This document shows positions 3,689 to 60,816 of a DNA stretch of 64,000 nucleotides, in pieces. The stretch lies in contig JAKAFM010000001.1 of NCBI GenBank assembly GCA_021817905.1, positions 3,985-67,984 of the forward strand, given 5' to 3'. The translations under genes and the position numbers were made by a program. Under the pieces are notes generated by a model, which did no database searches, had not been told where the DNA came from, and saw only the letters and a list, made by a program, of their open reading frames with translations. Source of the DNA: a bacterium. GTDB taxonomy: Bacteria > Patescibacteriota > Microgenomatia > UBA12405. Each line of letters opens with the position of its first letter. Position 1 is the stretch's first letter.

Positions 3689-4465
3689 AATCTTTTGGAA
3701 CTTACCAACATACTCGCGTGCATACTTTTTAAGCATTTTTACAATCTGGTAATTATTAATTTTTTTAAGCGCTTTTTCCCAACTCACCCAATCACGCACT
3801 GACTTCAGACTCTCAAGTTGTTCACGGATATCATCACTCAATATTCCTTTAATTTTTGCCTTTTCCATGGCTATTTCTACTCCTTCTTTGATATATTGCC
3901 AACTTGCCTCGCTAAGAGCCATCTTTTCGTATTTTTCCAAATGAATAACGTTCATGTTAACTACTTTCCACTGATCAAAAACACTATTAAGGTAAGTTTC
4001 CACTCCCAACCGACTCGCCTCTATATGAGCTAAATGCGGCAACAAATCATTTCTAAAATATGCCCGTTCACCGGTTAAATTAGAAAATAATTGCGATTTA
4101 TTTTTGAATCCGCCCAATACTACCTTGGCACGATGAGTCGTCAGCGGTTTTGCCAAGGCCTCAACCTCTGTCGCATTCAAATTTATCAAATCACTATCAC
4201 AAAAAATAACGATATCTCCTTTAGCCTGTTTCACCCCGGCCGCCATCGCTGCCCCCTTACCTCGATTTTTACGAAACGAAATTATTCGCAATTTTTTCCG
4301 GGAACAACTACTTAACTGTCCCAAACTTCCATCGGTGGAACCATCATTAATAGCAATTATTTCGTCAATTTTATCACCCAAACATAATGCTTCCACCACC
4401 CCCTTAACCGTCTTTTCTTCGTTATATACCGGAACAATAACTGTCAACTTAAAACCTGCAATCAT
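3674..4465 (-). CDS. Family 2 glycosyltransferase (DPM1-like)
   Basis: VIVPVYNEE...INDGSTDGS...CDSDL: the DxD and GT-A fold motifs. Confidence 0.8.
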   Translation of the reverse strand: MIAGFKLTVIVPVYNEEKTVKGVVEALCLGDKIDEIIAINDGSTDGSLGQLSSCSRKKLRIISFRKNRGKGAAMAAGVKQAKGDIVIFCDSDLINLNATEVEALAKPLTTHRAKVVLGGFKNKSQLFSNLTGERAYFRNDLLPHLAHIEASRLGVETYLNSVFDQWKVVNMNVIHLEKYEKMALSEASWQYIKEGVEIAMEKAKIKGILSDDIREQLESLKSVRDWVSWEKALKKINNYQIVKMLKKYAREYVGKFQKILGVD

Positions 4466-4485: not shown

Positions 4486-6444
4486 ATGACCTACTACAAC
4501 TTAAGCGATTTTAACCTCGACACTCTTTCTCCCAACATTTTGGGCGAAATACTTATCGAAGCCAAAAAAGCTTACTACACTACCGGCAAACCGATTATGG
4601 ACGATCACACCTATGACACGTTGGAAACTATTCTAAAACAAAAAAACCCCTACCATCGCCTCTTTAAAAAAGTCGGTCATCAAAACTTTGATACCGGCTT
4701 TGATAAAAAAAATCATCAAATGGCCATGGGATCCGAAAACAAAGTTACTACCTACGAAGAACTTAAAAAATATTTTGAACTAAAAAAAATTCCGCCCACT
4801 ACCGATTTTGTTGTCCAACCAAAATGTGACGGCATTTCTCTTGAAATAATCTACCAAAACGGTCAGCTTGTCGAAGCCATTACTCGGGGAGACGGTTTTA
4901 TTGGCGACATTATTACCCAAAATGTGATCAAGATGCAAAACGTAGTCATCAATTTACCCCAAAAATTCACCGGTTCTGTCCGTACTGAAATTGTAGTTAC
5001 TACCCGAGACTTTATAAAACTCAATCAACAGGTCAAATCCGAGGATGCGTATTCCAATCCTCGCAACGCTGCCTCAGGATTAGCCCAACGTCTTGATGGT
5101 CAATATGCAGAATTTTGCAGCCTCTATGCAGTTGATATGATGAGCAAAAACCCTCCATGGGACAATTCCACTGAATCAGAAAAAATAAATAAGCTGTCTT
5201 CTCTGGGATTTACCACCGTCGAATCTCATCTTTGTCATACCTTTACCGACATCGAAAAAATCTATCAACTTTTTTTAACCACCAAACGACAAACCTACCC
5301 CTACGAAATTGACGGGTTAGTTATAAAAATCAACAATCTCAAGCTACAAGAAGAACTGGGCCGTCTCAATAATCGCCCCAAAGGCCAAGTTGCCTATAAA
5401 TTTCCCGCCAGTAGCAATCTCAGTCGAATTATCGCTATTGACTGGCAAGTCGGCCCCTTAGGAACCATCACCCCTGTTGCCCAAATAGAACCGGTCGAAA
5501 TTTCCGGCGCTATTATTACCTATGCCTCACTGGCTAACCTCGACTTAATCAAAGAAAAAAACATCAATCTTAACGATATCGTCAAAATTAGCCGCCGCGG
5601 CGATGTTATTCCCCACATCGAAACCGTAGTCACCAAAGTTACCCCGGGTTTTATAAAACCACCCACCCTATGCCCTGAATGCCACACCACCCTGATTCAA
5701 GACCATAAATTTCTTAAATGTCCCAACCCTGTCTGCCCCGCCCAAACCCTTGGTTTACTTAGACTCTTTTGCTCCGTCCTTGATATCAAAGGTATTTCCG
5801 AAAAAACTATCGCCAAATTAATCACCGCCGGCAAAATTAATCACCCTGGAGATTTTTATAAACTAACGGTCGCTGATTTTAATAACCTAGAAGGCTTAGG
5901 AGAAAAATCAGGGACTAACATTGTTCATCAAATTCAGTCCAAACGTGAACTCGATCTGGAGACCATCTTTCATGCAGCCGCCATTCCTCATTTTTCTCAT
6001 GCCCGGATCAGACAACTTATTAGCGCTGGCTTTAACACCCCGACCAAACTACTCAATATCTCCATCGAACAACTTGAAACCCTTCCCGGCATCCAAATTA
6101 CCCTCGCCAACAAAATTTACAACGGTATTCACCTACGTCGTACTAATATCGAGTCTATTTTATCCCACGTAACTATTAAGAATTTGAAATTAGAAATTAG
6201 AAATTTGACATTGGCTGGTTTATCTTTTGCCATTACCGGTCAGCTTTCTCAACCCCGTCCAAAAATACAATCAGTGATTGAAGCCGCCGGTGGCAAGATA
6301 GCCAACACCATTACCAAAACGACTTCCTACTTGGTTACCAATGAAACAGACTCGGATTCCTCAAAATTCCTTGCTGCTAAAAAATTTAATATCCCCATCA
6401 TTACCGAAGAAAAACTTTATAAATTTATCAAAATAGCAGAATAG
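4486..6444 (+). CDS. ligA: NAD-dependent DNA ligase
   Basis: KxDG adenylation motif (KCDGISL). Zn-finger CPECHTTL...C. C-terminal BRCT domain. 652 aa. Confidence 0.95.
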   Translation: MTYYNLSDFNLDTLSPNILGEILIEAKKAYYTTGKPIMDDHTYDTLETILKQKNPYHRLFKKVGHQNFDTGFDKKNHQMAMGSENKVTTYEELKKYFELKKIPPTTDFVVQPKCDGISLEIIYQNGQLVEAITRGDGFIGDIITQNVIKMQNVVINLPQKFTGSVRTEIVVTTRDFIKLNQQVKSEDAYSNPRNAASGLAQRLDGQYAEFCSLYAVDMMSKNPPWDNSTESEKINKLSSLGFTTVESHLCHTFTDIEKIYQLFLTTKRQTYPYEIDGLVIKINNLKLQEELGRLNNRPKGQVAYKFPASSNLSRIIAIDWQVGPLGTITPVAQIEPVEISGAIITYASLANLDLIKEKNINLNDIVKISRRGDVIPHIETVVTKVTPGFIKPPTLCPECHTTLIQDHKFLKCPNPVCPAQTLGLLRLFCSVLDIKGISEKTIAKLITAGKINHPGDFYKLTVADFNNLEGLGEKSGTNIVHQIQSKRELDLETIFHAAAIPHFSHARIRQLISAGFNTPTKLLNISIEQLETLPGIQITLANKIYNGIHLRRTNIESILSHVTIKNLKLEIRNLTLAGLSFAITGQLSQPRPKIQSVIEAAGGKIANTITKTTSYLVTNETDSDSSKFLAAKKFNIPIITEEKLYKFIKIAE

Positions 6445-7208: not shown

Positions 7209-10200
7209 ATGGTCCACCCCATTTTTTATTCCTATGGATATAATGGTATAGTGAAGCGATTTTCTAAACTTTTAGCAGTAACCCTTATTCTAATTTTGGG
7301 AAGTTTTTTAGCCTATCGGCTTATTACTCAGTCACGACCTGTCCAGGCCGATTGGTACAACGATTCCTGGGCCTTTCGTAATGCTCTGCCTATAACCAGC
7401 CATTCTGTTGGCGAAACTAACGTTTATATCGTCGCCACGCTCAACATCAGTGCCACCGCCAACGCCCAGACTAACGATGCCGATATTCGCATTACCAAAA
7501 CAAACGGTGAAGTTTTACCCTATTACTTTGTCTCCGGAGTCGGCACCACCTCCATTGTCGTTCATGTTTTAATTGATAATTTTCCGGCTGGAGCTCAAAC
7601 ATTGTATTACTACTATGGCAACCCTAGCGCTCGGCCAATGGTCAGCCAAACTGATTTTTCCACTCTTGCCAGCAGCTACACCATCGGCACCCTCGGCTCT
7701 CAAGAAAAATCACCCGGCCCCCTTGCCTACTGGAAATTTGATGAAGGTCAGGGTTCAGTAACCAGTGATTCCGTCTCCAACCATTACCTAACTTTTGGCA
7801 CAGGTAGTTCCGCGCCATCCTGGGCAACCGAAGATCAATGTGTCAGTGGCAAATGTCTTTACTTTAATGGCAACAATTATTTGGCCAGCTCCGAAACATT
7901 TAACAATGTCCAATCTGTTTCTTTTTGGGTCAACCCCAAAAATGCGACACAAGGATTTGCCCTACCCTCATTTTCCCCCAGTACTTTACTTACCGGATAC
8001 ACTGGAAGCAATGCCAATTATTGGATATTTGAAACTACCGCTTCTAAGAGAATTGCTCAGAGTTTTCAACTAGGCCAAACCTCACAAATAGCTCAAATCT
8101 CATTTTACGGCCACCGATCAACTATTAATCAAAATTGGACCGTTCAATCCGATATTGAAACCGATAATGCTGGAATTCCATCAGGAACTATTATTAGCAC
8201 TAGTGATTGTATGCCATTTAATAATCTTGACACCGCCAACAATGTTCCCATTACTTTTAACTACAGCACACCCCCAACTTTGACGGGCAACACAACTTAC
8301 CATGTCGTATTTAAAATTTATAATGATTCATCCTGTACTACAGAACAAACTGTAAAAGATACCCAAAATTATGTTTTTATTCGATACAACACTACTAATA
8401 CCTACACTTCAGGTAATGAATCACTTTATAGTTCTAGTGACGTATGGACTGCCCAAACAGGAGAAGATGTCGCCTTCAGCGTTACCTCTACCAATAATGT
8501 TGTTGATATCGGCTCTTCTTCTGGGCAAATCGTTACCACCGGATTTTCGTCACCAACTATCTACATTAATGGCATTCTCAAAACAACACTTAATCTCAAT
8601 CAATGGCAACTTGTTACCGTCACTACTGCCACTCCTTTTTCAGCCGTCAATCCTAGTCTTGGGCAGTCAAACACCGCTTTTGCCACTGCTTATATGGATA
8701 ACTATAAACTATATTCTTATCAACTGACTGCTAACCAGGTCAAAGCAGAATTTAATTCTAAGGGGATCACTACCAATAAAGGTTCAGCCGTTAATCTAGG
8801 ATCCAACAACCGTAATTCCGATGCGTTATCTCAAGGGTTGGTCGGATATTGGAAATTAGATGAAAACATCGGTACTTCCACACTTGATTCTTCAGGAAAC
8901 AATAATACCGCCGTCTTCGGTACCGGCACTTCCGCTCCAAGTTGGGCCTCTGGTAAATTTGGTATTGGCTTAAGTTTTAATACCAATGATTACGCTTCCA
9001 TCGGAAACACCATTACTATTAGCAGCTTTTCCCTTTGGTATTATCCTACTACCACCGCTCCTGCTTTCCTCGAATTCGACGCATCAACCAACATTGGTGC
9101 ATCAGCCTCCACCATCTACACTAATGGCATTTCCTCTCCGAAAATTTATATTGACGGTAACCCATCACTCTCAATTGGCACGACTAATACTTGGCACCAC
9201 TTAGTTGTAACTACCAGCTCAACCATTATCGGCTCGTTGATCAAATTTGGAAAAGCCGGTTCCTTTTTTCTAAACGGTCAACTTGACGATATCCATTTTT
9301 ACAACCGCACCCTCTCTCCTTTAGAAGTCCAATATCTTTACGGTTGGGCTCCGGGTCCGATTGGCTATTGGAATTTTAACGAAAATAATAATCTCAACAA
9401 TATTGCTAACGATATTTCTGGTAGTAACAATCCTTTCACACTTTACGGACCTCTCTATACTGCTGGGAAATATGGTTCATCCTTAAAATTTAATGGTACT
9501 AGTAGCTATGGCGTCACCTCATCTCCTCTCACTATACTTAACGGAAAAGGTGCTTTTACCGTCTCTGCTTGGATAAACCCCACTTTTGCATCCAACGCCT
9601 CCACACGCCCACTTCGTCACATTGCTGCTTTAGGTGGAAGTTATGGACCAAATCTCAACTTTATTGACAATGGCACCAAATATTATATTGACTGTAGTGT
9701 TTGGAATACTGCAGTAACCGGCATAAACGTAAACACCTCCTCCACCGGACTTCCCACCTGGTCTGCCAATACTTGGCATTATTATACTTGCCGCTATACT
9801 GGTAGCATCATTGAATTATACTGGGACGGACAACTCTTAGCATCATCCGCCGGCTCAGGAAACGTTCACAATAGTGACGGCCCCGCTTATTTAGGCTCTG
9901 TCAATAGTAGCTTAGAGTTTTGGTCAGGACTAATTGATGACCTTAAAATTTACGACTACCCCCGTACCCAAAAACAGATCATTGAAGACATGAATGCCGG
10001 CCACCCCGCTGCCAACCCCAATTCAATGCTTGCCTACTACAAATTTGATGAAGGTTATGGATCCATTGCTAATAATTCCACCAATAATGGTTCAGTACTC
10101 AACGGCACCCTCGGCCCTGGTTCTTCCGCTCCCACTTGGACCAATAATGGCAAATTTGGCCGAGCTCTAAGTTTTAGCTCTACTAACAATGGTCAATATG

Positions 10201-48823: not shown

Positions 48824-48856
48824 AATATGTAATTATATAATTTTTACCATTTTATA

Positions 48857-48976
48857 TTGACTTTAAAGCCGCCAACCAGTAAAATTCCCCTATGAAATTG
48901 AGCATTTCATTTCATCATCACGCCAACTAAGTGTGGCGGGTGTTTTGGTAAATCCCCGTCAAGGGGATTTTTTTTG
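48857..48976 (+). promoter_or_regulatory. Putative histidine leader-peptide transcription attenuator (copy A): promoter, His-His-His mini-ORF and intrinsic terminator
   Basis: -35 TTGACT (48857-62), 17-nt spacer, -10 TAAAAT (48880-85). Mini-ORF 48892-48930 ATG AAA TTG AGC ATT TCA TTT CAT CAT CAC GCC AAC TAA = MKLSISFHHHAN. Hairpin CGCCA/TGGCG overlaps the stop codon. Terminator AATCCCC-GTCAA-GGGGATT followed by T8 (48951-48977). Confidence 0.55.
48892..48930 (+). CDS. 12-aa His-rich leader peptide MKLSISFHHHAN (attenuator copy A)
   Basis: Three consecutive His codons immediately before alternative hairpins and a terminator. The start is leaderless or nearly so relative to the predicted promoter. 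Confidence 0.45.
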   Translation: MKLSISFHHHAN

Positions 48977-49043
48977 CTTCTTTAGGTCTAATTTTGAACG
49001 AAGTGCTAAAATTTGTCTAAAGAAGCAATCCGTCTCAAACGGA

Positions 49044-49070
49044 TTAACATGGTGGTAGACGCTCAATTGG
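49044..49070 (+). other. Duplicated 5' fragment of tRNA-His (5' flank + acceptor + D-arm start)
   Basis: TTAACATGGTGGTAGACGCTCAATTGG versus the genuine gene TTAACATGGTGGTATTAGCTCAATTGG at 49143-49170. Confidence 0.5.
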
Positions 49071-49150
49071 CGAATCTGCAGATGAGTCCGTCGACTGACG
49101 GATTAGAGGCCTAATTGATATACTCCACTAAAATAACGTTTCTTTAACAT

Positions 49151-49225
49151 GGTGGTATTAGCTCAATTGGTTAGAGCGCAGCTCTGTGAAAGCTGAGGTT
49201 GCCGGTTCAAGTCCGGTATACCACC
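49151..49225 (+). tRNA. tRNA-His (anticodon GUG) with genome-encoded G-1
   Basis: G-1 then acceptor GTGGTAT/ATACCAC. D-arm GCTC-AATTGGTTA-GAGC. Anticodon loop CTGTGAA. T-loop TTCAAGT. Discriminator C. Confidence 0.85.
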
Positions 49226-49235
49226 CCTAAATAGT

Positions 49236-50510
49236 TCAATGACTCCAACGAAATCTTCTGGATGAGGTGTACCATGCACTACCACTTCCCGACCTAGCCC
49301 CGACTCTATTAAATTCCTCAATTCTTCTAAAGACACTCGGAAAACGCGCTTCTCTATTCCAATCGGGGTCAACTTTATTAACCATTTCCGGATTATTCAA
49401 ATAGAAAGTAATAAGTTCTGCCATTATCGCTAGACCTTCTTTACATACGTCATAAACATCTTTATACATTGGTCCGTTTTCCTGAGTACTAAGTGCTCTA
49501 AGAATAAAACCACGCGATTGACGATAATACTCTTCTAATTGAGAAGGAGAAACTAAATCGTTTCTTTTAACATTTTTGGGAAGATTTGAAAGCAAATCTA
49601 AAGCATAAAAAACAAAAGCTGGAAGGAGTCTCATATCAGAAATAATTTCACCATTATGCCTAACCCCCTTCATCTCTTGTGCTTCAAAAGATGATAGGTG
49701 TCTCATGGGATATTTAGTATTTCTATTATCGACCTCAAGCAAAAAGTGCCCAATATTTTCCAAATAAAAATCAACAGTATCGGCATTTAAAAACCCCAGT
49801 TCTAACAGTTTCTCTACAAAATAAGTATCTGCTGCCATACTAAATATTCGTTTCATGTCAGCCCATCCCATATATTTTTCAATCTGAGCTATTTCTTTTG
49901 GTAATCCATGGTCGTTAGTTTCACGCAAAACGTTTTCGGGCAATGCCATACATATTAACAACGGGGCCAACATAAAAGCAGTTTCCGAAGTATAGGGTGG
50001 TGCTGATAAATTAATTCTCTGTACCCCTGCCTGTAATAACTCACTCATTCGTTCTTCCGCATAAATATCGTCAAGCATTTTTCTATTATTCTCAATTATT
50101 ACCTTGTTACCATATTTATGTCCAAAATTTTCATTTATAGCTTCAAACAGTTCATCAAAAGTCACTTGACCTTTCATTTCCGCCAAAGTCGACAAGGTAA
50201 TCTTAACAAAATCAAGTGGTACCAATCTCGGCTCAACTAACCCATAAATAGACTTATCTTCTTGATATAACTCCCAACGATGATCACGATACCACGTTTC
50301 GCCATGTTCGCTAATACAATGTTCCTCATATTCTTTCATACATGCTTTAATCTGCCTATCAAATCCTCCTAGTCCAGAATAAGTACTGTCTGTACCAAAA
50401 ACCCAACCTGCTTGATTAAGTGTAATAACTGGCACCAACTGAACAGGTGGCAAATTACTCCGTATCGCCCTCCTGAATCCATCATAACCTTGAGATGTTT
50501 CAATTTTCAT
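49236..50510 (-). CDS. Hypothetical 424-aa protein bracketed by the two attenuator-like elements
   Basis: Long ORF of unrecognised family. An alternative frame near the 3' end (49163-49372) looks protein-like, suggesting a possible frameshift or degraded C-terminus. Confidence 0.5.
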   Translation of the reverse strand: MKIETSQGYDGFRRAIRSNLPPVQLVPVITLNQAGWVFGTDSTYSGLGGFDRQIKACMKEYEEHCISEHGETWYRDHRWELYQEDKSIYGLVEPRLVPLDFVKITLSTLAEMKGQVTFDELFEAINENFGHKYGNKVIIENNRKMLDDIYAEERMSELLQAGVQRINLSAPPYTSETAFMLAPLLICMALPENVLRETNDHGLPKEIAQIEKYMGWADMKRIFSMAADTYFVEKLLELGFLNADTVDFYLENIGHFLLEVDNRNTKYPMRHLSSFEAQEMKGVRHNGEIISDMRLLPAFVFYALDLLSNLPKNVKRNDLVSPSQLEEYYRQSRGFILRALSTQENGPMYKDVYDVCKEGLAIMAELITFYLNNPEMVNKVDPDWNREARFPSVFRRIEEFNRVGARSGSGSAWYTSSRRFRWSH

Positions 50511-50669
50511 TTGTAATCTAAGTTACTATAGGCTATAATTATACCATTATGCTCAAAACTAATCTTTTTATCCATCATACCCATACCGTGGTCACCACCC
50601 GCGGGGTAGTGGTCTGACCCTAAATTTTGAGTAGTCTTTTTAATCCCCGCACCCGCGGGGATTTTTGTG
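50511..50669 (+). promoter_or_regulatory. Putative histidine leader-peptide transcription attenuator (copy B) upstream of the ORF73-dapF-like-hisS-rpmE-prfA' operon
   Basis: -35 TTGTAA (50511-16), 17-nt spacer, -10 TATAAT (50534-39). Mini-ORF 50549-50617 = MLKTNLFIHHTHTVVTTRGVVV. 1:2 hairpin GGTCACCAC/GTGGTCTGACC. The 11-mer CACCCGCGGGG (50596-50606) is repeated exactly in the terminator (50650-50660) and so can form an antiterminator with the terminator 5' arm. Terminator AATCCCCGC-ACCC-GCGGGGATT followed by a U-tract (50642-50669). Confidence 0.55.
50549..50617 (+). CDS. 22-aa His-rich leader peptide MLKTNLFIHHTHTVVTTRGVVV (attenuator copy B)
   Basis: Three His codons in four positions (CAT CAT ACC CAT), placed just upstream of region 1 of the alternative hairpins. 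Confidence 0.45.
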   Translation: MLKTNLFIHHTHTVVTTRGVVV

Positions 50670-50787
50670 TCTCTTTAGGTCGAAATTTAAACGTAGTGAA
50701 AAATTTTGCCTAAAGATACCATCCGTGAGCGCCAGCAAAGCGGATATCTCAGACGGGTAGATCCCCTCCTTATTATTTTTTAAAACT

Positions 50788-51009
50788 ATGACCGAAATTC
50801 AAAAAAATAGTCAATTAACCTGGGACGTTTCTGAAGAAGAAGCTAACCGTATAAATTTACCTGCAAATGATTGCCGGCGATTTAATGGCGGACAAATCGC
50901 CACTCCAGAGCAACAAGCTGCCTGGAAAGTTCGACCGAGAACAACATTAGTATCCATTGCAAAAAACCAATTAATAGTCATTAATCGACTCAGGGAGGAA
51001 CTACTATGA
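50788..51009 (+). CDS. Hypothetical 73-aa protein, first gene of the hisS operon
   Basis: Its stop overlaps the next gene's start (ATGA). No recognisable motif. Confidence 0.4.
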   Translation: MTEIQKNSQLTWDVSEEEANRINLPANDCRRFNGGQIATPEQQAAWKVRPRTTLVSIAKNQLIVINRLREELL

Positions 51010-51716
51010 ACATAAAGTATCAACTCATTTCCCCCTCTGGGAATCTTACCGCCATAATTAATGGTCAGTATTCAGCCTCAGAAAAAAGTCGTATTAATCA
51101 AAAAATATTCGCCACCAATAAACTGGTCGAACAAATTGGTTACATCTTTCAAAAAGATTCGAAAAATTATTTTGAAATGATGGGTAATGAATTTTCCGGC
51201 AATGGTTGTCGCGCCGCAACATTGGCATTTCTCAATAATAATCCGGGAAAAATTTCATTTTTTACCTCTGGTATCAATAAAATAATAATCGGAAAGATAG
51301 ACAATGGTAATGCAACAGTCGCTATTCCTTCTCAAAAAGTGAACTTTATCAAAATAAGCAATACTATTTATTCAACAGTAATTTTCAATACCTTAATGAT
51401 CATTTCTGCAGATAATATCAACGATAAATCGAAAATTATCAAAAGATATTCTGATAAATACAATGCTATCGGATTTATGAGTTATCAAAAACAAGATAAC
51501 CAAATAAAGCTCAATCCCTGGTTTTGGGTCAAAGAAACCAATAGTCTCATTAATGAAACAGCCTGCGGCAGTGGCTCGATAGTTGTTGCCAAACTATTAG
51601 CTAAATCAACTATTTTCCAACCTTCAGGTCAGGCCCTCAAAATTAGGTTTAATAAACAAACAATCAATCTCAGTGGACCCATAAAATTGCTTACTGCTTA
51701 TAATGTTAAAATCTAA
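51006..51716 (+). CDS. DapF/PhzF-fold (diaminopimelate-epimerase-like) protein, non-canonical
   Basis: EFSGNGCRAATLAF resembles the DapF box xCGNGxRC, with Ser in place of the first catalytic Cys. ETACGSGSIVVA matches the second-Cys box TxACGTGA. 236 aa. Confidence 0.45.
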   Translation: MNIKYQLISPSGNLTAIINGQYSASEKSRINQKIFATNKLVEQIGYIFQKDSKNYFEMMGNEFSGNGCRAATLAFLNNNPGKISFFTSGINKIIIGKIDNGNATVAIPSQKVNFIKISNTIYSTVIFNTLMIISADNINDKSKIIKRYSDKYNAIGFMSYQKQDNQIKLNPWFWVKETNSLINETACGSGSIVVAKLLAKSTIFQPSGQALKIRFNKQTINLSGPIKLLTAYNVKI

Positions 51717-51718
51717 CT

Positions 51719-52963
51719 ATGAATCAATCAAAACCACAAACTCTCAAAGGTTTTCGTGACTTTTTACCCGACGATATGCGGGTACGCAACTACGTCAAAA
51801 AAATCTGTATCGAAGCCTTTGAACAGTTCGGTTTCGAACCTCTCGAAACCCCAACGCTTGAATATGCTTCTACCTTGATGGGTAAATATGGGAAGGAAGC
51901 CGATAAATTAGTCTATAAATTCAAAGATAATGGCGATCGTGATGTTGGCCTCCGCTATGACTTGACCGTCCCCACCGCCAAAGTTTTAAGCATCTACCAA
52001 CAACAGCTTCCCCTTCCTTTTAAGCGCTATCAAATTCAATCGGTTTGGCGTGCCGACAAACCTCAAAAAGGCCGCTATCGGGAATTCACCCAATGCGACA
52101 TCGACACTTTTGGTCCCCCCTCCCCTTTAAACGATGCCGAAATGGTCGCGGTTATCTATACTATTTTACAAAAATTAAATTTCAAAAAGTACCAAATTAA
52201 AATAAACAGTCGTCAAGTCCTTTTTGAAATAATTACCCGCTCAGGCCTTGAAGAACAAAAATTTACAGTCCTCCAGTCAGTCGATAAATTAAGCAAAATC
52301 GGATATGATGGAGTACAAAAAGAACTCATTTCCAAGGATATTAGCCAGGAACAGATAGAGTTACTGTTTAAATACGTCAAAGAGGCTCAACCAGACGATT
52401 ATCTAAAATCAGTCTTTTCTAAGCTGTCGGAATTTGGTGTCCCTCAAAGTGCCTATAGTTTTGACCCTACCATAGTCCGAGGACTTGACTACTACACCGG
52501 CCCAATTTTTGAAACCTATGTTGAAGAGCCCAAGATCGGATCAATTACCGGTGGTGGTCGCTATGATAATCTAGTCTCCAGCCTTGGCGGCCCCAATATT
52601 TCCGCCGTTGGCACTACGCTTGGCTTTGACCGTATTGTAGACTGTATTATCGAGCTCAAATTGCTCCCTCAACTACAAACCTCTACCACCAAAGTCATGG
52701 TTGCCAATTTTGGCCTCGACACTGAGAAAGAAGCGATAGGTCTAGCCACCACACTTCGTGCCAACAAAATCGCCACCATGCTCTACCCTACCTTTGACAA
52801 ATTAGGCAAACAATTTGCCTATGCCGACGCCAAAAAAATTCCCTTTGTCGCTGCTATTGGAAGTGATGAAGCAAAAGCCGGAAAAATTATGCTCAAAAAC
52901 ATGGCTAAAAAAGAGCAAACTTTAGTTAGTCAAGAAGACTTATTATCAATTCTTATGATATAA
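51719..52963 (+). CDS. hisS: Histidine--tRNA ligase
   Basis: N-terminal KGFRDFLPDDMRVRN signature of HisRS. Class II motifs. C-terminal anticodon-binding domain. 414 aa. Confidence 0.95.
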   Translation: MNQSKPQTLKGFRDFLPDDMRVRNYVKKICIEAFEQFGFEPLETPTLEYASTLMGKYGKEADKLVYKFKDNGDRDVGLRYDLTVPTAKVLSIYQQQLPLPFKRYQIQSVWRADKPQKGRYREFTQCDIDTFGPPSPLNDAEMVAVIYTILQKLNFKKYQIKINSRQVLFEIITRSGLEEQKFTVLQSVDKLSKIGYDGVQKELISKDISQEQIELLFKYVKEAQPDDYLKSVFSKLSEFGVPQSAYSFDPTIVRGLDYYTGPIFETYVEEPKIGSITGGGRYDNLVSSLGGPNISAVGTTLGFDRIVDCIIELKLLPQLQTSTTKVMVANFGLDTEKEAIGLATTLRANKIATMLYPTFDKLGKQFAYADAKKIPFVAAIGSDEAKAGKIMLKNMAKKEQTLVSQEDLLSILMI

Positions 52964-59433: not shown

Positions 59434-60816
59434 CTATTTTATCATTTTTTTAACTTTTGTCCCATCTAATCCATCTTCCACCACAAATCCGGCCTGCTCC
59501 AACTCTTTTCGCAGCCTATCCGATTCTTCCCAGTTTTTTGCTTTGCGTGCTGCATCCCGAGCCATAACCAATTTTGCAATCTCATCGGAAATTTCCACTG
59601 TTTTTATCTTTTCTCCTAAATTTAATCCCAAAACCCGATCAAAATCTAATAAAGTTGCCTTTTTATCTTCAGGTCTAATATCCACATCTTTTGTCAATTT
59701 CCATACTAATGCTATTACCTCAGGCATTGCCAAATCAGCCGCCAACAAAGTCTCAAACGCTTGTTTATAAGCTTCACTTACCGACCCTTTAACTCCAATT
59801 TCACTCACAAAATTTTTAAGTTTTTGATAAGCCACCATCGCCACTTTTAAATTATCCAAAGAAAATTCCAACCCTTTTCGGTAGTGACTCGTTAATACCA
59901 TATATCGATAAGCCAAAGGGTCAATTCCCATTGTCGCCAACTCCTGCGCCAAAAATAAATTTCCCGTCGACTTTGACATCTTGGCTCCCCCCTTACTAAC
60001 CACAAAAGCATTATGCACCCAATAATGGGCCGTCTGATGCCCAAAAGCGCCATAACCTTGTGCAATTTCGTTAGTATGATGAACCGGAATATGATCAATT
60101 CCGCCGGTATGAATATCAAAAGTTTCTCCCAAATATTTAACCGACATCGCTGTACACTCCAAATGCCACCCCGGAAACCCAACTCCCCATGGGCTCCCCC
60201 ACTCCATTTGTCGCTTCGGTCCATCTTTAGGACTAAATTTCCATAAGGCAAAATCACTCAAATTTCTCTTTTCTTTACTGATTTCATCCCGTTTTGTATC
60301 TTTAATTTCCTCCAGCTTTAAGTGTGCAAATTGAGCATAATCAGGAAACTTACCAGTATCAAAATAAACTCCATCTGAAGTGATATAAGTAAACCCGTTG
60401 GCCTCAATCTTTTGAATCAAGGCTATCTGCTCCGGAATATGATCAGTTGCCGCGCAAACCACTTCAGGTCGATTAATATTAAGTAGTTTTTCACTATCAA
60501 AAAATTGCTGCTCATATTTTTTCGCTATTTCCCACACTGTTAACCCCTCTCGTTTAGCCCCTTTCTCCATCTTGTCCTCACCCTCGTCGCCGTCAGAGAC
60601 CAAATGTCCGACGTCAGTAATATTCATTACCTGTTTTACCTCATACCCAAGATATCTCAATGCTCGTACCAATAAATCCCAAGAAATATAGGCATACATA
60701 TTTCCGATATGCTGATTCCAATAAACCGTCGGTCCGCAGGAATAAATTCCAATTTGTTTATCTTTAATAGGAACAATTTCCTCAACTTTTCTGGTAGCTG
60801 TGTTATAAAGCCTCAT
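59434..60816 (-). CDS. cysS: Cysteine--tRNA ligase
   Basis: Class I HIGH (HIGN) and KMSKS motifs. CysRS-specific Zn ligands. 460 aa. Confidence 0.95.
   Translation of the reverse strand: MRLYNTATRKVEEIVPIKDKQIGIYSCGPTVYWNQHIGNMYAYISWDLLVRALRYLGYEVKQVMNITDVGHLVSDGDEGEDKMEKGAKREGLTVWEIAKKYEQQFFDSEKLLNINRPEVVCAATDHIPEQIALIQKIEANGFTYITSDGVYFDTGKFPDYAQFAHLKLEEIKDTKRDEISKEKRNLSDFALWKFSPKDGPKRQMEWGSPWGVGFPGWHLECTAMSVKYLGETFDIHTGGIDHIPVHHTNEIAQGYGAFGHQTAHYWVHNAFVVSKGGAKMSKSTGNLFLAQELATMGIDPLAYRYMVLTSHYRKGLEFSLDNLKVAMVAYQKLKNFVSEIGVKGSVSEAYKQAFETLLAADLAMPEVIALVWKLTKDVDIRPEDKKATLLDFDRVLGLNLGEKIKTVEISDEIAKLVMARDAARKAKNWEESDRLRKELEQAGFVVEDGLDGTKVKKMIK

Follow-up and report, generated by a model that had tools for sequence, protein, structure and literature searches.

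Leader peptides with codons for the cognate amino acid are known to control aminoacyl-tRNA synthetase genes, the classical case being the E. coli pheST operon, which is placed under the pheM leader peptide and a terminator. Bacteria of the Candidate Phyla Radiation (CPR, or Patescibacteria) have minimal genomes with few recognisable regulators, and to our knowledge almost nothing is known about gene regulation in them. For histidine, a leader peptide has been predicted upstream of a Bacillus hisS paralog and of hisZ, and swaps between T-box and leader-peptide sensing at hisS loci have been described (PMC2965389). In mycobacteria, leaderless polycysteine short open reading frames (ORFs) are reported to act as Cys-responsive attenuators (bioRxiv 10.1101/834739). 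In this study, we analyzed a stretch of 64,000 nt (hereafter the window, whose coordinates are used throughout) of contig JAKAFM010000001.1 from a genome of the Microgenomates, which belong to the CPR. The window contains two intergenic elements, element A upstream of the tRNA-His gene and element B upstream of the operon containing hisS, the gene of histidyl-tRNA synthetase (HisRS). Both are quite probably ribosome-mediated (leader-peptide) transcription attenuators that sense charged tRNA-His.

Anatomy of the two elements

Each element contains a promoter, a mini-ORF with His codons, a hairpin 1:2, an antiterminator pairing 2:3 and an intrinsic terminator (Table 1). A sequence-only reading of the window had proposed this layout, and its individual parts are all in place: near-consensus promoters with 17-nt spacing, three His codons in either mini-ORF, a hairpin 1:2 overlapping the mini-ORF stop codon, an intrinsic terminator in each element and an exact 11-nt duplicate in B. 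The His codons of mini-ORF B are found at 50573-78 and 50582-84 (HH-T-H), and its hairpin 1:2 encloses the antiterminator segment and carries the stop codon TGA (50615-17) in the 3' strand. The duplicate, CACCCGCGGGG, is located at 50596-606 and 50650-660; it copies the loop and 3' arm of the terminator, and the upstream antiterminator segment of B lies inside it. Since the ATG is 6 nt (A) or 9 nt (B) past the -10 box, both mini-ORFs are leaderless or nearly so, as the same reading had supposed. Leader folding is more stable than that of shuffled sequence in both A (z = -4.8) and B (z = -4.5). Moreover, a strict scan of both strands detected six canonical intrinsic terminators in the 64 kb, three of them on the + strand; terminators A and B are two of these three and the two clearest of the six.

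The two elements had also been called homologous, which is true of one part only. Their best-conserved stretch (77% identity, 48964-49033 versus 50657-50726) lies past the terminators, whereas the leader-plus-terminator parts barely align and are better described as analogous. A and B belong to two different leader types.

Because the gene following tRNA-His is convergent to it, tRNA-His is the sole cargo of attenuator A. Attenuator B would gate ORF73, the histidine-racemase-like ORF236 and hisS, and possibly also rpmE and prfA, which are located downstream of hisS. Among solved structures, ORF236 is best matched by a histidine racemase (9cr1, E = 1.3e-13); the precomputed Pfam assignment places it in CntK_N, it contains the motifs GNGCRA and ACGSGS, and it is 62% identical to its ortholog in locus L082. 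With this protein encoded beside hisS, the cargo of B is histidine-related throughout, and all the products concerned (tRNA-His, HisRS and the histidine-racemase-like protein) are tied to histidine. Co-regulation of a histidine racemase gene with HisRS would be unexpected in a CPR genome.

Table 1. Features of elements A and B and their surroundings (window coordinates), and leaders of other genomes (locus labels).
Feature	Position or locus	Strand	Description
Promoter A	48857..48885	+	TTGACT (48857-62), 17-nt spacer, TAAAAT (48880-85); 10/12 matches
Mini-ORF A	48892..48930	+	leaderless; MKLSISFHHHAN, then stop; 12 codons; His codons CAT CAT CAC at 48913-48921
Hairpin 1:2 of A	48921..48938	+	CGCCA/TGGCG; stop codon TAA (48928-30) inside loop
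Antiterminator 2:3 of A	48934..48961	+	TGGCGGG (48934-40) with CCCGTCA (48955-61); masked folding
Terminator A	48950..48975	+	8-bp stem (48950-70), 5-nt loop, T8 tract; -11.3 kcal/mol
hp1-hp2 copy A	48975..49044	+	long hairpin with loop GAACGAAGUGCU, then short hairpin ATCCGTCTCAAACGGAT; model R1, 73.4 bits
Degenerate tandem copy of tRNA-His	49047..49140	+	tRNA-like pseudogene between hp2 and real tRNA-His
tRNA-His (GUG)	49151..49227	+	encoded G-1; 69.3 bits
424-aa gene	49236..50510	-	convergent to tRNA-His; no Pfam match
Promoter B	50511..50539	+	TTGTAA (50511-16), 17-nt spacer, TATAAT (50534-39); 10/12 matches
Mini-ORF B	50549..50617	+	near-leaderless; MLKTNLFIHHTHTVVTTRGVVV, then stop; 22 codons; CAT CAT ACC CAT at 50573-84
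Hairpin 1:2 of B	50590..50619	+	GGTCACCAC (50590-98) with GTGGTCTGACC (50609-19); read from sequence/fold
Antiterminator 2:3 of B	50601..50650	+	GCGGGG (50601-06) with CCCCGC (50645-50); masked folding
Terminator B	50642..50668	+	9-bp stem (50642-63), 4-nt loop, T run; -15.5 kcal/mol
hp1-hp2 copy B	50668..50745	+	model R1, 71.4 bits
ORF73	50788..51009	+	first gene past attenuator B; called by some gene callers only
ORF236	51006..51716	+	histidine-racemase-like enzyme, DapF/CntK fold
hisS	51719..52963	+	histidyl-tRNA synthetase (tRNA-synt_His, E = 2.9e-39); 2 nt past ORF236
Leader directly upstream of tRNA-His (A ortholog)	L083		MTITSLYLHHCL
Leader directly upstream of tRNA-His (A ortholog)	L097		MTLTTGSIAHHHAN
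Leader directly upstream of tRNA-His (A ortholog)	L093		MINLSSKSTHHHAN
Leader directly upstream of tRNA-His (A ortholog)	L092		MIYAKVISKHHHTTK
Leader directly upstream of tRNA-His (A ortholog)	L002		MNTVLVIGNFHHTTK
Leader directly upstream of tRNA-His (A ortholog)	L004		MRSLSLHHHHSHE
Leader directly upstream of tRNA-His	L027		...VFHHHAR
B-type leader ortholog	L083		MYQKSFFHHHHTVVTYRGVLM
B-type leader ortholog	L097		MNFTNFNTHHRHTVVTIPRGAAVT
Leader immediately upstream of hisS	L020		MTKVAVKLAHHHSLR
Leader immediately upstream of hisS	L022		MLLSNATTQVHHHTLL
Leader immediately upstream of hisS	L057		MQKINEKTSVFHHHSST
Leader immediately upstream of hisS	L050		MDKQLFITILHHHSTHIVRGSVFHC

The enterobacterial his-operon type of attenuation, which had been suggested from the sequence alone, fits both elements and has comparative and in-silico support. 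Under this model, transcription would start at the AUG or within about 3 nt of it, and a 70S ribosome would load straight onto the nascent leader and translate it, as in leaderless initiation. An ample supply of His-tRNA-His would let the ribosome run to the stop codon and cover segment 2 (in A, TGGCGGG; in B, GCGGGG), upon which the terminator hairpin would form and RNA polymerase would stop at the T tract. When His-tRNA-His is scarce, the ribosome would stall on the His run and cover segment 1 only, leaving segment 2 free to pair with the emerging 5' arm of the terminator; the terminator would then be blocked and transcription would continue. In this way, A would gate tRNA-His alone and B the hisS operon. 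We infer translation of the mini-ORFs, coupling of transcription and translation, and histidine-dependent readthrough.

Conservation of the leaders in related genomes

The elements were compared with 80 GTDB hisS loci, to which further HisS relatives and metagenome loci recovered by a scan for hp1 (a hairpin described below) were added; all loci carry labels of the type L001. The HisS relatives of the window are labelled Shapirobacteria, Woesebacteria or Microgenomates. In L081, L082 and L084, the nearest HisS relatives (71-79% identical), no leader adjoins hisS. Five further assemblies of the same population, one of which is GCA_027347555.1, are 100% identical across 48824-51010, and strain comparison is therefore uninformative. 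An nhmmer search of the relatives' loci with the A or B sequence gave almost no matches, and the leader family was recovered only by an architecture search, which required in the hisS loci an ATG mini-ORF containing HH and then a terminator.

About 30 related genomes, with HisS proteins 45-72% identical to that of the window, share the layout of A and B, which in eight genomes is placed directly ahead of tRNA-His. At least 24 of the 80 GTDB loci have a His mini-ORF and a terminator ahead of hisS itself or at the head of a co-directional operon whose last gene is hisS (among them L020, L022, L028, L042-45, L050, L056, L057, L062, L063, L066 and others). A His mini-ORF was also found directly upstream of tRNA-His in L002, L004, L027, L083, L092, L093 and L097, in all cases except L027 together with a clear terminator, which in L083, L002 and L004 ends no more than about 20 nt ahead of the tRNA gene. 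Hence, the expectation that relatives would retain His codons, an in-frame mini-ORF and a terminator upstream of hisS and tRNA-His has been borne out. Across orthologous leaders, the His codons stay in frame and the remaining peptide diverges. Alignment of the A-type orthologs demonstrates that promoter A and the GCCAA...TTGGCGG motif of hairpin 1:2 are kept; in the B-type leaders, the nucleotide block CATACCGTGGTCAC is invariant in four genomes, and the GGTCAC/GTGACC pairing of hairpin 1:2 is retained in L083, L097 and L002.

Strand and frame controls gave the same picture. Within 400 nt upstream of hisS, mini-ORFs containing HHH were found on the sense strand of 7 of 78 loci and on the antisense strand of none, and those containing HH on 14 sense versus 2 antisense strands. 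Upstream of terminators, CAYCAY occurs 68 times on the sense strand. The His frame of an ATG-to-stop mini-ORF holds 49 of these occurrences, compared with 10 and 5 for the remaining two frames; on the antisense strand, the control counts were 3, 2 and 4 of 27 for the three frames. In addition, 22 of 32 leaders have a promoter with at least 9/12 matches whose -10 box ends 6-11 nt ahead of the ATG.

The most compact arrangement was observed in L083 (HisS 72% identical), in which promoter, leader 1, terminator, tRNA-His, leader 2, terminator and hisS form one unit. Its second His leader ORF begins (1685-1690) about 4 nt past the discriminator base of tRNA-His and has neither a promoter nor a Shine-Dalgarno site of its own; because of this, tRNA 3' processing could yield a leaderless leader mRNA in L083. 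A-type and B-type leaders coexist in L083, L097 and L002, which implies that the two types predate the gene insertion that split the unit in the window. The ancestral layout was likely a single unit as in L083, split here by the minus-strand gene, with leader 2 having its own promoter. L001 and L003 contain a different minus-strand gene at the position of the window's 49236-50510 gene, and the junction between tRNA-His and hisS therefore seems to be insertion-prone. In L063 (1262-7236), the His leader MCKRFGFTSNVHHHSSHISRGSVSLL and a terminator head six co-directional genes ending in hisS; by their N-terminal sequences and sizes, the intervening genes look like his biosynthesis genes. If this reading is right, L063 provides a link between these attenuators and the classical his-operon arrangement.

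Two further observations concern other copies and other amino acids. The same GC-rich palindrome, CCTGCCTGCCGGCAGGCAGG, is present in the B-type leader of L002 (5550-5580) and in the T-arm region of tRNA-His in L027 (~3690-3715), and may be a small mobile palindromic element. In L094 (~8260-8490), a near-leaderless mini-ORF with a GTG start (FCFKSIIIT, then stop; three Ile codons), a terminator and hp1-hp2 are found upstream of an IleRS gene, which suggests leader-peptide attenuation of synthetases for other amino acids in this clade. Within the window itself, the minus-strand cysS (59434-60816), checked as another synthetase gene, has no Cys leader upstream.

Predicted switching between terminator and antiterminator

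For 32 leaders, including A and B of the window, the nucleotides covered by a ribosome were masked and the remainder was folded, with the ribosome placed either at the stop codon or, stalled, at three positions over the His codons. In a second, nascent-transcript model, the RNA was cut ahead of the 3' arm of the terminator before folding. All 32 leaders form the terminator when the mask covers the stop codon. With a stalled ribosome, the terminator is gone from the full-length minimum-energy fold at each of the three positions in 21 leaders, element A being one of them, and at some positions in five more. In the nascent model, the 5' arm of the terminator pairs upstream in 31 of the 32 stalled leaders; A engages 7 of the 8 nt of this arm and B 6 of 9, through the segments given in Table 1, and neither shows such upstream pairing when the ribosome is at the stop codon.

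When the real spacers of the family were compared with shuffled ones, 0.84 versus 0.46 of the arm was paired (Wilcoxon p ~5e-8), and the energies were -16.3 versus -8.2 kcal/mol (Wilcoxon p ~5e-10). For window A alone, the free energy of the real spacer was equalled or undercut by 5 of 100 shuffled ones. A switches in both models and is convincing individually, whereas B is not and switches in the nascent-transcript model only; of the mutually exclusive structures foreseen for both elements, those of A are clear and those of B weaker.

A structured module downstream of the terminators

Both elements are followed by a two-hairpin module, here named hp1-hp2, which the sequence-only reading had missed. 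It begins in the U tract of the intrinsic terminators. hp1 is a hairpin of about 22 bp with the loop N-AACGNAGUG-NN, and hp2 is a second, variable hairpin. The sequence of hp1 is nearly invariant across genomes. Compensatory changes occur at seven pairs, 92% of cells are paired, and G·U pairs are seen on the + strand only; its covariation score was reached by 0 of 500 shuffles, and RNAalifold independently predicted the same hairpin. hp2 covaries too. The module matches no Rfam 15 family, giving only spurious microRNA-like hairpin matches far below gathering scores.

A model scan revealed two copies in the 64-kb window and none in the 80 GTDB hisS loci. In the metagenome loci, the module follows a His leader and terminator and precedes tRNA-His in L092, L093 and L097; L097 carries a second copy in front of its hisS operon. 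The module is also located before infC (L086, L089), between rpmE and prfA (L096), before the IleRS gene of L094, where an Ile-codon mini-ORF and a terminator come first, before tRNA-Lys (L103), and between two small membrane-protein genes (L098). Since L083, L002 and L004 have the attenuator and lack the module, hp1-hp2 is dispensable for the attenuator and separate from it. That the module is a mobile repeat or arose by recent duplication is unlikely given its orthologous positions, the covariation of hp2 and its low copy number; these positions are kept despite HisS divergence, which was estimated for L092 (about 70% identity).

Our best guess is that hp1-hp2 is a protein-recognised leader or a processing hairpin. 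The main rival for the module is a promoter or operator, suggested by an extended -10-like TGnTAAAAT in the hp1 loop region, which by our reading of the alignment is present in 9 of 13 copies. As a sigma-70 promoter, hp1 was rejected because no -35-like hexamer lies at the right distance and the promoter scan found no site; the -10-like motif is retained as a minor rival.

Between hp2 and the real tRNA-His lies a degenerate tandem copy of this tRNA, likewise overlooked before. The 5' 27 nt of the copy are 89% identical to the region around the real tRNA start in the alignment; it keeps acceptor-like ends and 7 nt of 5' flank, and its interior has diverged. This region folds with z = -3.1, includes a weak promoter-like site (49095-49124) and is not called as a tRNA by ARAGORN or Rfam.

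Assessment of the attenuation model and its alternatives

Attenuation of A and B rests on their anatomy, their conservation, the frame preference and the mutually exclusive pairings in silico. Several points weigh against it. For window B alone, 34 of 100 shuffled spacers are as stable as the real one; its antiterminator has 6 bp versus 9 bp in the terminator, and the terminator persists in the full-length minimum-energy fold despite a stalled ribosome. Because the terminator outcompetes the antiterminator at equilibrium, B could work only as a kinetic switch; kinetic precedence likewise applies in the classical trp leader. The His runs are short (3 codons versus 7 in E. coli hisL), and sensitivity may therefore be low. 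L001 and L003, the closest GTDB relatives by HisS identity, do not have the element, and the B-type copy of L002 has lost its His-His pair and gained a palindromic insertion, which implies that the element is dispensable in some lineages. Terminator A is separated from tRNA-His by 180 nt that contain a weak promoter-like site (49095-49124, 9/12); together with the TGnTAAAAT motif of hp1, this makes attenuator-independent transcription of tRNA-His and hisS conceivable. Finally, every functional step of the attenuation is one that we infer, and we know of no study of leaderless initiation or transcription-translation coupling in such organisms.

The weak promoter-like site and the hp1 motif also form the basis of the strongest competing explanation, in which each element yields a small transcript of its own, either a small RNA or the mRNA of a tiny protein, ended by the terminator, and tRNA-His and hisS are transcribed mainly from a separate downstream promoter, for example in hp1, with little or no attenuation. 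Such a promoter would be expected between the terminator and the next gene, where hp1-hp2 is typically found. However, in L083, L002 and L004 the mini-ORF and terminator abut tRNA-His, with neither hp1 nor room for a promoter, and in L103 a canonical promoter (TTGGCA-17-TAAAAT) is located upstream of hp1. No hp1 site passes the sigma-70 scan, and the compensatory changes in both arms of hp1, along with its + strand G·U pairs, point to an RNA hairpin. Separate transcription would also leave the conserved His codons, the placement of the stop codon and the antiterminator complementarity unexplained, and we consider it improbable.

T-boxes commonly control hisS, and CAU and CAC could both pair with the GUG anticodon of tRNA-His; A and B might thus be tRNA-sensing riboswitches of the T-box type that operate without translation. 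A T-box-like leader is indeed present at the equivalent place in L007 (Paceibacterota; 4754-4941, upstream of tRNA-His and hisS; 43.8 bits, E = 1e-6, below the gathering score of 93), and probably also in the equivalent region of L009. By our reading of its sequence, the L007 leader has an apparent CAC specifier codon, and a UGGG bulge in it seems to match discriminator C73; it is the putative functional counterpart of attenuator A and fits the T-box/leader-peptide swapping described in PMC2965389. Literature searches for T-boxes in Patescibacteria found nothing relevant. In the window, by contrast, an Rfam scan returned tRNAs only, whether run at the gathering threshold or with E up to 10, which excludes membership in the His_leader, T-box and other known families: His_leader (RF00514) had no match at either setting, and T-box (RF00230) had none even at E up to 10. 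The leaders are just ~80-120 nt long and lack Stem I and the T-box sequence; their His triplets are in tandem and share the frame of an AUG located where the transcript begins, the stop codon is fixed relative to hairpin 1:2, and the frame preference (49 versus 10 and 5) is strong. A T-box mechanism for A and B is accordingly very unlikely.

Autoregulation by HisRS in the manner of E. coli thrS, with the GUG in the hp1 loop AACGNAGUG mimicking the anticodon arm of tRNA-His, would account for the presence of hp1 upstream of both tRNA-His and hisS in the window. The same hairpin and loop precede infC, prfA, the IleRS gene, tRNA-Lys and small membrane-protein genes elsewhere, and the second L097 copy, in front of the hisS operon, differs in its loop. 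Since hp1 is therefore not histidine-specific, the anticodon mimic was rejected, and we give this explanation almost no weight. It is scarcely credible that the mini-ORFs and hairpins are fortuitous or decayed relics without present function, as the lack of the element in L001 and L003 and the degenerate look of the L002 copy might suggest, because the window retains every part intact, the layout persists across the ~30 genomes despite their HisS divergence, and the shuffle, frame and strand controls oppose chance.

Implications

With leader-peptide attenuation as the preferred explanation for A and B, our results indicate that in a large clade leaderless attenuators of this kind control a synthetase together with the cognate tRNA gene, and that sister lineages have a T-box-like leader at the same place. 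If confirmed, a tRNA gene gated by a sensor of its own charged form would be a new kind of cargo for a textbook mechanism, and decoding capacity rather than amino-acid supply would be tuned in an organism whose window shows no his biosynthesis genes. hp1-hp2 is a candidate new RNA motif for translation-related genes, and the leader family supplies many mini-ORFs that are currently missed by genome annotation.

A broader proposal can be made tentatively, and on balance we lean against it: the two elements may together form a homeostat for charged tRNA-His in the Microgenomates, in which what is probably the sole tRNA-His gene is gated by an attenuator reading its own aminoacylated product, the first tRNA gene known to be so controlled, and a second attenuator gates HisRS. 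In the same proposal, hp1-hp2 would be an undescribed structured RNA module under sequence constraint, common to infC, prfA, ileS and tRNA-Lys, that may mark a lineage-specific post-transcriptional regulon or a processing signal.

Comparison with known systems

The enterobacterial his leader (hisL, RF00514) shares with A and B a short His-codon ORF, overlapping 1:2, 2:3 and 3:4 pairings and an intrinsic terminator; a ribosome that stalls for lack of His-tRNA-His allows readthrough in hisL, as would be the case for A and B. The likeness extends to gene order in L063, where the His leader precedes the apparent his biosynthesis genes and then hisS. On the other hand, A and B have no sequence or structure homology to hisL, the leaders contain 2-4 His codons versus 7, and they are leaderless versus the Shine-Dalgarno site of hisL; biosynthetic genes are replaced as cargo by a tRNA gene and a synthetase operon, and the host belongs to the CPR.

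The sequence-only reading regarded leader-peptide control of a synthetase as a departure from the norm, a view that pheST and, in Bacillus, a hisS paralog as well as hisZ contradict. pheST has the same combination of synthetase operon, cognate-codon leader peptide and terminator; it differs in its amino acid, shows no homology, controls no tRNA gene and is not leaderless. The Bacillus leaders also place a His-codon mini-ORF and a premature terminator upstream of a hisS-family gene (PMC2965389). They are, however, from Firmicutes, serve a paralog or regulatory subunit and not the sole HisRS, involve no tRNA gene and have no sequence relationship to A or B. That tRNA genes under peptide attenuation are undescribed agrees with our literature searches on leader-peptide control of tRNA genes, which found nothing relevant.

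The T-box of hisS responds to the same signal, the charging of tRNA-His, and produces the same output, terminator versus antiterminator, ahead of the same gene. It differs in sensing the tRNA through RNA without a ribosome, and the window is devoid of T-box features. The mycobacterial polycysteine ORFs resemble A and B in being leaderless mini-ORFs at the 5' end of an operon transcript, in which a run of regulatory codons tunes the downstream genes (10.1101/834739). They concern another amino acid and another phylum. Their mechanism is not known to rely on a classical intrinsic terminator. Compared with all these systems, the mechanism proposed for A and B is classical, and it stands out by its leaderless initiation, the tRNA gene among its cargo, the CPR host and an associated, undescribed RNA module.

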